From Deltaproteobacteria bacterium (lineage in GTDB: Bacteria > JAGRBM01 > JAHCIT01), in NCBI GenBank assembly GCA_026129095.1, contig JAHCIT010000004.1, positions 124,001-188,000 of the forward strand: 64,000 nucleotides of DNA. The letters run 5' to 3'. This document shows, piece after piece, positions 2,782 through 12,073 of this stretch (its first letter is position 1; each line of letters starts with the position of its first letter). Under the pieces are notes generated by a model, which did not search any database, had not been told where the DNA came from, and worked only from the letters and a program-made list of their open reading frames with translations. Made by a program: the position numbers and the translations under genes.

Positions 2782-3369
2782 TTATTCGCACCCGCAGTCG
2801 AGGCAGCCGTGCTCGGCGCAGGTGCCGCAGGACCGCTCAAGGCTCGTCTTGAGCGCCTGCCGTGCCCGGTGCAGGCGGACGCCGAGGTTCCCCGCCGTGA
2901 TCCCCAGCGACGTGGCCACCGCGCCCTGCGCCTCGCCGCCGAGGTCAACCCGCTTCAGGAGTTCGGCGTATTCCGGCTTCAGCGTGCCGAGAAGCCCCCA
3001 CAGGCAGCCGCAGGCACTGTCCTCGCCGCTTTCGGGATGCACGCGATCGGCCTCATGGGCCAGCATCTCCTCCAGAAGGCCGGCATGCTTCCGCTCGTCA
3101 GCGCTCCGGCTCCGGTAGTGGTCGGCCACCGCGTTCCGCAGGATCCGGTAGAACCAGGCGACGATGCTCTCGCCGCTTCGGAGCTGGCCGCCCCTCTGGG
3201 ACGCCTTCACGAGACAGTCCTGGAGGATGTCCTCGGCCGCCGCCTCGTCACCGAGGCGGCTCGTGAGGAACCGGCGGAACTCAAGGTGCTGCTCAAGCAG
3301 GGCCGCCGCGATCTCCGGGTCCATCGGCTTCAGCGGTCCGGCGGTCTGTGGGGCTTCGGCCGTTTCCAT
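2782..3369 (-). CDS. ECF sigma factor, CorE-like (C-terminal cysteine-rich domain)
   Basis: Sigma2 (AAAEDILQD, WFYRILRNAVADHYR), a CGC motif in the linker, sigma4 (VRLHRARQALK) and C-terminal CGTCAEHGCLDCGC. The start is either 3369 or 3324. Confidence 0.9.
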   Translation of the reverse strand: METAEAPQTAGPLKPMDPEIAAALLEQHLEFRRFLTSRLGDEAAAEDILQDCLVKASQRGGQLRSGESIVAWFYRILRNAVADHYRSRSADERKHAGLLEEMLAHEADRVHPESGEDSACGCLWGLLGTLKPEYAELLKRVDLGGEAQGAVATSLGITAGNLGVRLHRARQALKTSLERSCGTCAEHGCLDCGCE

Positions 3370-3415
3370 ACCGGTGATCCTGCCCTCCGTTCTGACGTCC
3401 ATCCTGTCTTGGAAG

Positions 3416-3443
3416 GCGGAGGGGCACAACCGTGCCCCTCCGC
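3416..3443 (-). terminator. 12-bp perfect GC-rich hairpin between the Cys-rich small ORF and the ECF gene (stabiliser or partial terminator)
   Basis: gcggaggggcac-aacc-gtgcccctccgc, about 10 nt after the small ORF stop, with no clear U-tract. Confidence 0.5.
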
Positions 3444-3452
3444 TCCCGTCCC

Positions 3453-3620
3453 TTACCGGGGCTTGCACTGGCCATCCTTGCAGTCGCAGTTCTTGCAGCC
3501 GCAGTCCGTTCCGCACTGGCAGCCGCTTCCGCAGTCGCAGTTGCAACAGCCTCCATTCGAATCGGAGTTCGCACCGGCAATCGCCGCCTCGGTACCCGAC
3601 TTCAGGGTCTGGTTCTTCAT
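3453..3620 (-). CDS. Metallothionein-like small Cys-rich protein (55 aa)
   Basis: Manual translation: MKNQTLKSGTEAAIAGANSDSNGGCCNCDCGSGCQCGTDCGCKNCDCKDGQCKPR*. It has 11 Cys, mostly as CxC, and the SD AAAGGAGGT lies 8 nt before the ATG. Confidence 0.85.
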   Translation of the reverse strand: MKNQTLKSGTEAAIAGANSDSNGGCCNCDCGSGCQCGTDCGCKNCDCKDGQCKPR

Positions 3621-3647
3621 GGTTTCAGACCTCCTTTCTATATGGGC

Positions 3648-3674
3648 AGACGGGGGCCGGGGGCGGACCTTACA
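3648..3674 (-). promoter_or_regulatory. Putative ECF-type promoter TGTAAG-N16-CGTCT
   Basis: Minus strand tgtaag-gtccgcccccggcccc-cgtct lies just upstream of the small-ORF RBS. A CGT-containing -10 element is typical of ECF promoters. Confidence 0.6.
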
Positions 3675-3764
3675 GATTAAAATAATTTAACTATCAGCGG
3701 CGGCGCGATTGCCGTAAAGACAGGTTTGTCCTTCTGCGTCAACCCTCCGTATACTTGGGGGACC

Positions 3765-5103: not shown

Positions 5104-5238
5104 GCGGCCTCACCCCCTGCCCCCTCTCCGGGAACCGGAGAGGGGAAAACCACACCCCCTTAATCCCCCTCTCCGCAGTCGCGGAGAGGGGGATTAAGGG
5201 GGTGTGGTTGGAGCCCGTTGAGGCGCGGGGTGAGGCCG
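5104..5238. repeat. Composite palindromic REP/MITE-like element, copy 1
   Basis: Outer cctcacccc...ggggtgagg inverted ends enclose two ccctctcc-N-ggagaggg hairpins, one of which is a perfect 29-bp inverted repeat (5148-5209). Confidence 0.85.
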
Positions 5239-9121: not shown

Positions 9122-12073
9122 GTGAAACACTTTCAACACTGTCTGGCCGCCTGTCTGGCCGGGATTTTCCTCACAGGCTGCGGCGAACCTGGAGCCACCG
9201 TTGTCGCGCCGGACGATCCCGTGCTCCTCGTACCGGAAACCGCCGAGGGCCGTATCCCGGTCCTGATCCATGACGAGGGGAAAACAGAACCCACCCGTTC
9301 GGCCCGCAAGGGACTCGACGCGGGTAAGGCCGGAAACGTCCGCCACTTCGATCGCATCGGAGTGACAGCCGCCGATCTGGATCCGGACGAATACGAGCGG
9401 CTGGTGGCCCGGTTCGGACCGGAGCGGGTGCAGCGGCAGCAGTATTACCGCCCCACCCTCGCCCAGAGTCTCGAACTGGCCGGAAACAGCCTGTTCTTCA
9501 GCGGTTCCGGCTCTGACCCGTTCAGCGGACAGGGGACGATCGTGGCGGTGCTCGACACTCCGCTCGGCAACATAGACTCCGGGCGGTTCGGACCGTGCCT
9601 GGGCGGCGCGGGATCGGGAACCTGCCGGATCGCCGAAGTGAGCCACGACTGCGGTGACGGAACCGCCGCCAACGATGTTGTGGAAGGCCACGGCCGCAAC
9701 GTGACCGGCATCGTGCTTGGCGTGGCCAACGACACCCGTATCCTCTTTTATGACATCTTCAGCCCGTCCACCACGTCCGGCCGGAACCTGACCAACGACG
9801 CCGCCATCGCCTGCGCCCTGAACGACATCGCCACACGCAGGGCGGCCGGCAGTCCCATCATCGCCGCCAATCTCTCGCTGGGCGGGGCGGCGGGGAGCTT
9901 CACCGGAGCCTGCAGTACCAGCGCGACCTCCGTCGCCCTGCGCACGCTGGTCAACACCCACCGGGTCATGCCGGTCATCGCCGCCGGCAACGAGGGACTC
10001 TCCAACGGCCTCTCCCACCCCGGCTGCGTGCCGTGGGCGACCTCCGTGGGCGCTGTCTATGACGCAGCGCTGGAGGGCGGCACCAGTTTCTCGCTCTGCT
10101 CCGACGAGATCGCCGAGGCCGACCAGATCACCTGCTTCACCAACATCCACGGAGAACTGGACCTGATGGCTCCGGGCTTCCCCATCACCGCCGCCGGGAT
10201 CAGCATGGGCGGCACCAGCCAGGCGACCCCGCATGTGGCGGGGGCCGCTGCGCGGATGGCGTCACTGCTGGGCGGCGGATGGCTGCCGGGACGGGCCACG
10301 TCGTATCTTCGCATGAACGGCCTGCCGGCATCCATTGAGCGTGAAAGCGTCTGGAACGGCTACTCCATCCCGCGGCTGGAGCTGATGCTCGATTCGGCCA
10401 GCAACCCGCCGGCGGCAGCGGGCTACCGCTCCTACCTGGACGGCGAGGGAACCGCCGGGCTTGCCATCCCCGACAGCGGATCGGTCACGAGCGAAATCGT
10501 GATCCCGGCAAGCGCCTGCACCGGAAACGCCGGTGCCGTGCGCGTGGACATGGACATCCTGCACCCGGCCCGCGGCGAACTGACCCTCAAGCTGCGCCGC
10601 AATTCGGATGCCGACCAGCTGATCGACACCATCATCGGGACCGACGTCCGCTTCGGTGTCCGGCAGATATTCAGCATCGCCGATTTCGGCGGAACCTGCA
10701 GCGGCACCTGGACCCTGACGGTCGAGGATACTGCAGCCGGGAACACCGGTGCGCTCCTCGAATGGTCGCTTTTCATCCATGACACCGGCTCCACCGGCAA
10801 CATCTCCGGCTCGATCACGTCGGCCCCGCAGGCCGTGGCAACGGGCGGCGGCATCACCGTCCAGTTCGACCGGACCGTCAGTGCCAACGCCGTACCGGCC
10901 ACCGTCAACGCGCTCTACCTGCGGCAGAGCGGGCGTCCGCTCGCGCCGCTTGTGCTCATTGACGATGAAACAGACACCGGCACGGCAGTGAACACCTACA
11001 ACCGGTCCCTGAGCGGCAATGCCCCCGCCACACCCGGCGTTTACGACATCATCATCCGGCTGGATGACCGGCAAGAGGCGGCCGAGCCCCAGGGCGAAAG
11101 CGGCACGGGCGAGGAGGACAACGAGCTTGTTGGCTCCACGCCGCTGCTCGTCACGCACACGGACGGCGCCGACTTTATTGCGGCCGCCGGCAGCGTGACG
11201 TCATCCGCCACCCTGACCGACAGTATGACCGTCACCGGAACCTACCGGATCGCCAACATCGGCAACGCCGCGGCGGACCTCGCAGTGCAGTTCTGTTTCG
11301 TAGGGACGGGAATCAGGCAGGGGACCACGGTCTGCCATCCGGTGCCTGACACGGCCAGTGATTTCGCCGCCGCCACGCTGGGCGCAACCGGAAATTTCAG
11401 CTTCACCCTGCCGGGCGGTGTTTCCACCGGTTCCTGGTTCCTGGAAATCCGCCCGTCGGCGGATGGCGGCGACACCGACAGCAATCTCGCCAACAACAAC
11501 TACCGGGTGCCGGTCCTGCTTGGTTTCGCCATGCCGGACCTCGCCGCCGAGATCATCACCCTCGACACCCAGCTCTCCGACCTGAGCCTCCGGCTCGATT
11601 ACCAGTACCGGAACAACGGCAGCCAGACCGCTGCGGCCCACCAGATCAGGGTGGTGGCATCCCTGGATACCGTGTTCGGAAACTCCGACGACCAGGTGCT
11701 GGCGACGGAAAACGTCGCCGCCCTGCCCGGAGCCACCACCCGCGCTTCGGCGATCACCGCCGATCCGCCCACCCTGCCGGCCGGGACCGACAAGGCGCTG
11801 GTGTACATCGCGCTCGTGCTGGATCCCGGAGGCTCCGTCAGCGAGAGCAGCGAATCCAACAACCGCATCCAGACCGCGCTCGTCTTCGCACGGGATACTG
11901 GCGATGGCAGCGGCGGTGGTGGAGGCGGCGGTTGCAGCACCTGCGGAACCGGCGGAGGAGGAGGCGGCGGCTGCGCCGGTGGCGGAAGCTGGCCGGGGGT
12001 TCTCGGCCTGATGGTCCTCGTTTCGTTTCTCGTGCGGCGGCGTCCCTTGCGGACGTCACGCGCCCTCCGTTAG
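9122..12073 (+). CDS. Multidomain S8 serine peptidase with P-domain, CARDB/Ig-like domains, lipobox and C-terminal sorting tail
   Basis: Catalytic motifs VAVLDT, GHGRNVTG, AAGN and GTSQATPHVAG. It also has a P-domain (DILHPARGEL...GTWTLTVED), CARDB-like VSESSESNN, an N-terminal LTGC and a C-terminal Gly-run/Cys/TM/RRR tail. Confidence 0.88.
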   Translation: MKHFQHCLAACLAGIFLTGCGEPGATVVAPDDPVLLVPETAEGRIPVLIHDEGKTEPTRSARKGLDAGKAGNVRHFDRIGVTAADLDPDEYERLVARFGPERVQRQQYYRPTLAQSLELAGNSLFFSGSGSDPFSGQGTIVAVLDTPLGNIDSGRFGPCLGGAGSGTCRIAEVSHDCGDGTAANDVVEGHGRNVTGIVLGVANDTRILFYDIFSPSTTSGRNLTNDAAIACALNDIATRRAAGSPIIAANLSLGGAAGSFTGACSTSATSVALRTLVNTHRVMPVIAAGNEGLSNGLSHPGCVPWATSVGAVYDAALEGGTSFSLCSDEIAEADQITCFTNIHGELDLMAPGFPITAAGISMGGTSQATPHVAGAAARMASLLGGGWLPGRATSYLRMNGLPASIERESVWNGYSIPRLELMLDSASNPPAAAGYRSYLDGEGTAGLAIPDSGSVTSEIVIPASACTGNAGAVRVDMDILHPARGELTLKLRRNSDADQLIDTIIGTDVRFGVRQIFSIADFGGTCSGTWTLTVEDTAAGNTGALLEWSLFIHDTGSTGNISGSITSAPQAVATGGGITVQFDRTVSANAVPATVNALYLRQSGRPLAPLVLIDDETDTGTAVNTYNRSLSGNAPATPGVYDIIIRLDDRQEAAEPQGESGTGEEDNELVGSTPLLVTHTDGADFIAAAGSVTSSATLTDSMTVTGTYRIANIGNAAADLAVQFCFVGTGIRQGTTVCHPVPDTASDFAAATLGATGNFSFTLPGGVSTGSWFLEIRPSADGGDTDSNLANNNYRVPVLLGFAMPDLAAEIITLDTQLSDLSLRLDYQYRNNGSQTAAAHQIRVVASLDTVFGNSDDQVLATENVAALPGATTRASAITADPPTLPAGTDKALVYIALVLDPGGSVSESSESNNRIQTALVFARDTGDGSGGGGGGGCSTCGTGGGGGGGCAGGGSWPGVLGLMVLVSFLVRRRPLRTSRALR

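Follow-up and report, generated by a model that had tools for sequence, protein, structure and literature searches.

The question raised by this locus is what a very small cysteine-rich gene does directly ahead of a gene for an ECF sigma factor of the CorE type. The first-pass annotation had read the pair as a compact module for metal sensing and sequestration, and its description of the parts was borne out: the 55-aa ORF at 3620-3453, with a strong Shine-Dalgarno sequence, 11 Cys within 28 residues and no His or aromatic residue, the element TGTAAG-N16-CGTCT ahead of it (3674-3669 and 3652-3648), and a 12-bp hairpin followed by the sigma gene are all present. The features are listed below with their coordinates in the window, that is, the whole stretch of 64,000 nucleotides that was analysed.

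3676..3694, minus strand: AT-rich tract just 5' of the -35 element; by its sequence a possible UP-like element.
3669..3674, minus strand: -35 element TGTAAG of a predicted CorE-type promoter; the same element lies 5' of 47 of 49 related peptide genes.
3648..3652, minus strand: -10 element CGTC(T), 16 nt past the -35 element; 16 is the preferred spacer in 160 loci.
3630..3635, minus strand: Shine-Dalgarno sequence AGGAGG, 9 nt ahead of the ATG.
3453..3620, minus strand: gene for the 55-aa metallothionein-like peptide; 11 Cys in residues 25-52.
3416..3443, minus strand: 12-bp hairpin past the stop codon of the peptide gene, with no U-tract; it may form the 3' end or act in processing or stability.
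2782..3402, minus strand, start at 3402 or 3369: CorE-type (ECF44/ECF238) sigma gene, with a CxC linker and a C-terminal Cys-rich domain.

Judged from its composition and its pattern of variation, the small ORF is a real gene whose Cys residues are under purifying selection. The predicted peptide is 20% Cys with CC and CxC motifs, lacks His, Phe, Trp and Tyr and has no visible hydrophobic leader. In a six-frame scan of the genome (3.67 Mb, 96.65% complete), this was the only stretch with at least 11 Cys per 28 residues, and its third-position GC is 0.80. In ten close pairs of related peptides dN/dS was 0.29 by simple counting, and 99 of 102 Cys columns were unchanged versus 261 of 338 others. 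Strain variants from two runs carried six changes in the gene, namely stop-to-stop, two silent and two Ser-to-Ala codons, the latter outside the Cys block; both promoter changes fell in the spacer, and the stop and the Cys block were kept. A chance ORF, or a leader of the sigma mRNA, is a very improbable explanation: the lack of any family match or distant homolog would suit it, as would the sigma frame, which is open across the peptide gene in the window, but it is opposed by the perfect Shine-Dalgarno sequence, the third-position GC, the stop and Cys block conserved in strain variants, the selection in relatives and a positional enrichment of 49 matches against 1, described below. A fusion or frameshift between peptide and sigma was also considered and rejected, since the frame offsets vary among the 25 co-directional loci and leave no shared fusion.

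The gene had been called hidden, and this is true with respect to the first-stage ORF track only; the exact 55-aa protein is already present in NCBI, nr and Logan. Eight of nine relatives that were looked up are absent from protein collections (a collection of 15 billion proteins) and are therefore missed by profile searches. The conservation expected of the ORF was found at short range, with Cys kept in close pairs of relatives and in strain variants. A word-indexed search with the peptide returned a 96% variant only, with no homolog past strain variants; the best score in the ESM Atlas (0.81) was at chance level, and PDB profile matches (E 0.45 and 3.4) were not significant.

Pfam and NCBIfam gave no match for the peptide and none above cut-off for 18 relatives. 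The search against metallothionein profiles that the annotation had suggested was negative for both families: PF02069 (SmtA/BmtA) matched neither the peptide nor any protein of the genome, with a positive Synechococcus control, and PF01439 (plant metallothioneins) matched none of 19 peptides at E up to 1. A profile of the peptides run against 1.84 billion proteins yielded three matches, none bacterial-looking; the two best (E 5.5e-8 and 3.3e-4) are PF01439 members and span 20-26 Cys-rich positions only. The wording "plant/animal-like" is hence apt for composition, but the peptides do not match PF01439. Across 50 peptides, Cys makes up 22.8%, His 0.8% and aromatic residues 0.3%; 34 lack His and 28 lack His, Phe, Trp and Tyr altogether. 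Related peptides are 27-64 aa long and carry 7-15 Cys. An alignment of 19 rows has a mean identity of 27% and no common surface beyond Cys. Since identity between the peptide and the rest of the set does not exceed 42% and no distant homolog turned up, the set may be convergent. By its make-up and context, the product is probably a metallothionein outside every profiled family, with metal binding predicted.

Concerning the sigma factor, Pfam detected regions 2 and 4 (PF04542 and PF08281) only, and the best NCBIfam model, SigZ, stayed below cut-off; 7557 of 8000 scored candidates are relatives. Literature statements here and below refer to the accessible parts of the papers cited. The CxC linker and Cys tail had been described as CorE-like, and the alignment agrees: C131/C133 match C120/C122 of CorE and are invariant in 36 aligned homologs, and in the C-terminal tail (CGTCAEHGCLDCGC) the residues C192, C195, C200, C203 and C205 correspond to CorE Cys 181, 184, 189, 192 and 194, including the equivalent of the essential Cys189. 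The sixth tail Cys of CorE (206) is absent, as the tail stops after five. The reference is an M. xanthus protein, 49% identical over 96% of the sigma length, whose Cys 120, 122, 181, 184, 189, 192, 194 and 206 and Ala185 are the CorE numbers of PMC4937300. Cys at the specificity position of CorE2 leads to a Cd/Zn response (PMC4937300); Ala196 of the present sigma aligns with CorE Ala185 and not with CorE2 Cys174, so it falls outside the CorE2 subtype (Cd/Zn). By every sequence criterion tried, the sigma belongs to the CorE-like group, its metal activation is predicted, and Ala196 marks the predicted copper type. All 160 sigmas collected below lack the CorE2 Cys by selection, so this position does not discriminate within the set.

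The statement that no anti-sigma gene is adjacent also stood. The neighbours of the sigma gene, classified at the locus with Pfam and NCBIfam, are the peptide gene, a gene for an MXAN_5187 C-domain protein and a divergent alpha/beta-hydrolase-like gene, with no anti-sigma gene among them. In the AlphaFold model the helical core is confident and the Cys tail has pLDDT below 50, so no metal site can be read from it. A complex prediction of sigma, peptide and Zn scored 0.00 and has no bearing either way. Among the sigma homologs, one record (P0012) joins an LMWPc (ArsC-like) domain to the N-terminus of a CorE-type sigma, a putative fusion.

The first-pass annotation had recommended a scan around CorE-like ECF genes for small Cys-rich ORFs and the same motif, and this proved productive. 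Loci were fetched with the 36-row sigma alignment, 80 each from GTDB (the best of at least 561 confirmed loci) and from metagenomes (the best of at least 486). The seed patterns favour CorE-type tails, and the 160 loci are biased towards kin. The peptide rule (25-100 aa, at least 7 Cys and at least 14%, two CxC, Shine-Dalgarno 4/6, little Arg) was shaped on the GTDB set as discovery set and applied unchanged to the metagenome set. A Cys-rich small ORF was found within 400 nt of the sigma gene in 18 of 80 GTDB and 31 of 80 metagenome loci (49 of these 160 best-scoring loci, 47 of the 49 with the motif). The farther flanks held no match in 599 kb (GTDB) and one in 192 kb (metagenome), 791 kb in total. 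The whole source genome contains seven matches, six of them without the promoter, so that the near flanks, 120 kb in all, would be expected to hold well under one by chance. Some peptides (L113, L116 and L123) escape the rule, and 24 peptide-free loci have short flanks. Peptide and sigma genes lie within about 175 nt of each other, in four arrangements.

Named hosts with a peptide comprise Acidobacteriota (4), Gemmatimonadota (4), Myxococcota (4), Eiseniibacteriota (2) and one labelled WWE3, with three unassigned. Evenly drawn genomes gave similar pictures: 151 genomes of the acidobacterial class that holds L008 contained 11 new CorE-type loci, four with a peptide and one more by a looser rule; 121 genomes of Gemmatimonadota contained seven new loci (one probably identical to L073), four with a peptide, one of these motif-free; and 101 genomes of a myxobacterial phylum contained nine new loci in five genomes, four with a peptide. 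Eighteen other ECF loci of the acidobacterial class had neither motif nor adjacent peptide, with one rule match 1.1 kb away, and none of five plasmid loci examined (of 30 records; Alphaproteobacteria and Nitrospirota) had a peptide. At identity cut-offs of 90, 60 and 50%, the 50 peptides collapse into 44, 32 and 23 clusters. On a 79-row GTDB tree five changes suffice to explain the distribution of the peptide, and in a quick tree the present sigma sits on a mostly peptide-free branch. Regarding these data, the pairing of a predicted Cys-rich peptide gene with a CorE-type sigma is real and widespread. Peptide and ATPase seemed at first to exclude each other near the sigma gene, an ATPase motif being present in 1 of 18 loci that have a peptide versus 28 of 62 others; this was rejected because it failed a tree test with two independent pairs (p 0.5-1).

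Four genomes (L240-L243 and L235-L238) have two sigma paralogs each. The first is a CorE-type sigma between an HMA chaperone and a P1B ATPase, with a 16-nt spacer; the second is divergent, has the tail Cx7Cx2CxC and lies behind a 52-57-aa peptide with at least 15 Cys and a promoter with a 17-nt spacer. These look like separate export and sequestration circuits. The peptide of L243 contains four tandem CGPDCK repeats.

The two-part motif marks, as far as position can tell, the targets of the CorE sigma clade. TGTAAN-N16-CGTC lies 20-79 nt 5' of 47 of the 49 peptide genes, with T or G as sixth base in 47 of 47; one of the two motif-free loci is at a contig start. There are 152 sites in 121 of the 160 loci versus 2-7 in base shuffles, and all 152 have a spacer of 16, against 0-6 sites at spacers of 13-15 and 17-21, and 13 at 12. 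The first ORFs behind the motif (n = 151) are 50 peptides, 47 proteins with YHS/HMA/HMBD motifs including ATPases, nine DUF4396 proteins, nine DUF4177-like proteins, the sigma itself in three cases and 33 others; these classes are regex-based, and Cu-handling Pfam domains were found in 17 of 34 spot-checked proteins. In M. xanthus AM003, four of five genome-wide sites are within 7.5 kb around corE and precede a P1B ATPase, a cupredoxin-like ORF, an operon leading to an efflux protein, a multicopper oxidase and corE, and an HMA chaperone. The last two of these units correspond by gene order to MXAN_3424-cuoB and MXAN_3427, which are CorE-dependent in vivo (PMC3107203). Counted over whole genomes, the 10-base motif by itself does not exceed chance; controls with the pattern reversed were equally or more frequent in four of five genomes, so it is position that bears the weight. 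PMC3107203 derived a CorE motif from an AAC search (Figure S3), so TGTAA-N16-CGTC may not be new; the 2021 ECF reclassification gives no conserved motif for ECF238 in the accessible part of its supplement (PMC7826278).

Several further gene types stand behind this promoter. In nine acidobacterial-type loci (L036, L053, L087, L098, L102, L108, L109, L121 and L145) a second promoter copy, downstream and on the opposite strand, precedes a conserved exported-looking DUF4177-like protein of 190 aa. In L003, L012, L013, L023, L029, L041, L084, L086, L094 and L110, DUF4396 membrane proteins, often with His-rich N-termini, follow the promoter and are candidate copper-handling proteins. In the Planctomycetota-type loci L047, L048 and L080 it is a 71-aa ORF ending in CxCxxCxxxCC, which is neither one of the peptides nor a known family.

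The source genome holds the strict motif twice only, ahead of the peptide gene and ahead of a 742-aa HMBD-P1B ATPase on another contig (C19). The latter shows CPC, YN and MxxSS, which we take to be the P1B-1 signature, and genes for an outer-membrane efflux protein and a CusB-like protein come next; an integrase adjoins. The pair is thus not self-contained here, as its predicted second target is a Cu-type ATPase/efflux cluster elsewhere in the genome. This cluster is likely an acquired copper island under the control of the sigma. Between ATPase and efflux protein, the region (G000 C19:17000-29000; L082 1644-8720) also has a short ORF whose product is Cys/His-rich and exported-looking. Contig C23 carries another Cu-type ATPase, which is without the strict motif.

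The hairpin that follows the peptide stop has perfect 12-bp arms (3443-3432 and 3427-3416), a 4-nt loop and a folding z of -4.1 against 200 shuffles; it has no U-tract and was not called in a terminator scan. Hairpins occur past the peptide stop in each of the four arrangements (33 of 47 loci reach a z of -2 or lower, versus 1 of 47 in the control), which makes the hairpin look like the peptide gene's own 3' end. A metatranscriptome contig (3288-3616) runs from the peptide gene through the hairpin into the sigma gene, and a second RNA contig covers 3104-3472. Strand, level and induction cannot be read from such contigs, nor do they establish a single transcript; contigs of run X1 cover the whole stretch, and X1 may contain DNA. 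Since the hairpin lacks a U-tract and one RNA contig spans it, read-through into the sigma gene is possible.

This bears on the autoregulated loop that had been proposed. The peptide gene is upstream of and co-directional with the sigma gene in 25 of 49 loci; in the other 24 the sigma is not behind the promoter, so autoregulation is not a general feature, and what stands of the proposal is possible read-through at the source locus. For CorE and CorE2, autoregulation is described as partial or none.

Taken together, the small gene probably encodes a His-poor copper metallothionein belonging to the regulon of the neighbouring CorE-type sigma, copper binding and sigma dependence being predictions. 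Copper would act on the CxC linker and Cys tail and activate the sigma without an anti-sigma. From TGTAAG-N16-CGTC the active sigma would transcribe the peptide gene, and the genome's one other strict site would serve for the Cu(I)-type P1B ATPase and the CBA-type efflux pump. As a fast-acting sink in the cytoplasm, the peptide could gather several Cu(I) ions into thiolate clusters. The probable role of the hairpin is to terminate or shield the short message, whereby peptide would be made in excess of sigma, and read-through past the hairpin may yield partial autoregulation at this locus.

The claim that the peptide removes the inducer does not follow from this scheme. A thiolate peptide could reduce Cu(II) and drain total copper, and it could thereby shorten the pulse. 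In M. xanthus, Cu(II) switches CorE on and Cu(I) switches it off, and output rose threefold with Cu(I) chelators (PMC3107203); a peptide that binds Cu(I) could therefore prolong the signal. A more ambitious version, in which His-poor copper metallothioneins under CorE-type sigmas form a large, mostly uncalled class of multiple origin (Acidobacteriota, Gemmatimonadota, Myxococcota, Eiseniibacteriota and others) and the peptide, as a Cu(I) chelator, keeps its own sigma on in a positive, redox-selective loop, is tentative and more doubtful than not.

A different metal is conceivable but unlikely: within the same circuit, the peptide would be a metallothionein whose cargo is Zn/Cd, arsenite or some other soft ion. 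Eleven Cys suit about three divalent ions, and the homolog P0012 carries an ArsC-like LMWPc domain as a putative fusion. CorE is also weakly activated by Cd and Zn (PMC3107203). Yet the specificity position is Ala, the ATPase co-regulated in the source genome is of the Cu(I) type, and the 160 loci hold 42 DKTGT and 33 CPC ATPase motif matches versus one credible ArsC-like ORF (from 18 regex matches), with no arsenic gene among 34 promoter-first proteins scanned. Slightly less likely again is that the peptide mainly tunes the sigma, by stripping inhibitory Cu(I) from the Cys tail or by delivering metal, so that the response would be prolonged or amplified and detoxification would be secondary. 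For DNA binding, CorE required both copper and a Cu(I) chelator, BCS or BCA tripled cuoB expression, and a so far unidentified chaperone for CorE was a speculation of the authors (PMC3107203); the position of the gene, some 175 nt or less from the sigma across four arrangements, would fit as well. Against this, 111 of the 160 loci lack a peptide by the rule, among them that of M. xanthus corE, which is functional without one; the 19 aligned peptides share no surface beyond Cys at their 27% mean identity; and the peptide occupies the first-gene slot as ATPases and HMA chaperones do.

The suggestion that the peptide could act as a functional anti-sigma, here a small protein in direct contact with the sigma, appears improbable. 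Tight linkage and the upstream co-directional position in 25 of 49 loci are what such a partner would show, but most loci have no peptide, and the length and sequence of the peptides are too variable for a conserved interface. Moreover, CorE is inactive without copper even when overexpressed (PMC3107203), so no anti-sigma is needed. The reading retained is that of a predicted copper metallothionein in the sigma's regulon.

The block itself fits a gain in the source lineage. In three of three genomes of the same family (one genus), a DUF6285 gene lies directly 5' of the MXAN_5187 C-domain gene; in the source genome these two are separated by about 2.5 kb that hold the sigma, the peptide and the divergent hydrolase-like gene. 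The sigma was not found in these three genomes (83-99% complete), in two genomes of the same order or, overall, in 40 other genomes that include these five. The block may instead have been lost in the sister genus. At one edge of the 2.5-kb block, which relatives lack, lies a perfect 29-bp inverted repeat with a 4-nt loop (5148-5209), between convergent hydrolase-like and DUF6285 genes. Elsewhere in the window, 9122-12073 encodes a subtilase of 983 aa whose domains include P-proprotein and CARDB and whose C-terminus is a Gly/Cys-rich, sorting-like tail.

Among known systems the nearest is the CorE regulon of M. xanthus (ECF44, now ECF238 or ungrouped; PMC3107203, PMC4937300), which shares the CxC linker, the Cys tail with Ala, the lack of an anti-sigma, the same motif before copper genes, and P1B ATPase and efflux genes as targets. 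It differs in that the adjacent target there is an oxidase, an ATPase or an HMA chaperone, and here the metallothionein-like peptide; the present sigma has five tail Cys, and its export genes are on another contig. MymT of M. tuberculosis is likewise a small copper metallothionein of the cytoplasm (it takes up to six Cu(I); binding by the present peptide is predicted) whose copper regulon also includes an oxidase and membrane proteins, and is likened here by description; its regulator RicR is a CsoR-family repressor, in contrast to a metal-activated sigma (PMC3944814). SmtA/BmtA and the Pseudomonas metallothioneins (PF02069) are also about 55 aa long, Cys-rich and linked to a regulator as in smtA-smtB, but use Cys9His clusters for Zn/Cd under an ArsR/SmtB repressor or none (PMC7387436), whereas the peptide lacks both His and aromatic residues and is not matched by PF02069. 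Plant metallothioneins (PF01439) share CxC-rich blocks with Gly, Ser, Asp and Lys; nothing points to common descent, and the peptides fail PF01439.

The first-pass annotation knew of no description of this pairing, and the open-access literature searched (subscription papers being outside its scope) agrees, with no link of CorE to a metallothionein and no paper combining bacterial metallothionein, sigma factor and ECF. The accessible part of the 67-locus table of PMC4937300 has no metallothionein. The main texts of PMC8999054, PMC4937300, PMC6851896, PMC7826278 and PMC3107203 lack the word, as do the searchable supplements to two of these papers. The accessible text of PMC10141476 treats CorE and MymT separately; that of PMC13578184, PMC7387436 and PMC3944814 covers cyanobacterial, pseudomonad and mycobacterial metallothioneins only, and that of PMC11672702 has nothing relevant.

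As of 2020, biological function had been studied for two bacterial metallothioneins only, SmtA and MymT (PMC7387436). Both are under repressors, in contrast to the metal-activated sigma predicted here. The about 50 candidate sequences differ from them in make-up and occur in abundant uncultured phyla, with many soil and sludge bacteria among the hosts; they probably represent an overlooked kind of bacterial copper-binding metallothionein. They also supply a testable promoter for CorE-type sigmas. Furthermore, a sensor and a sponge in two genes and 900 bp would be simple to transfer to a laboratory strain, where the model of CorE as switched on by Cu(II) and off by Cu(I) would be directly testable.
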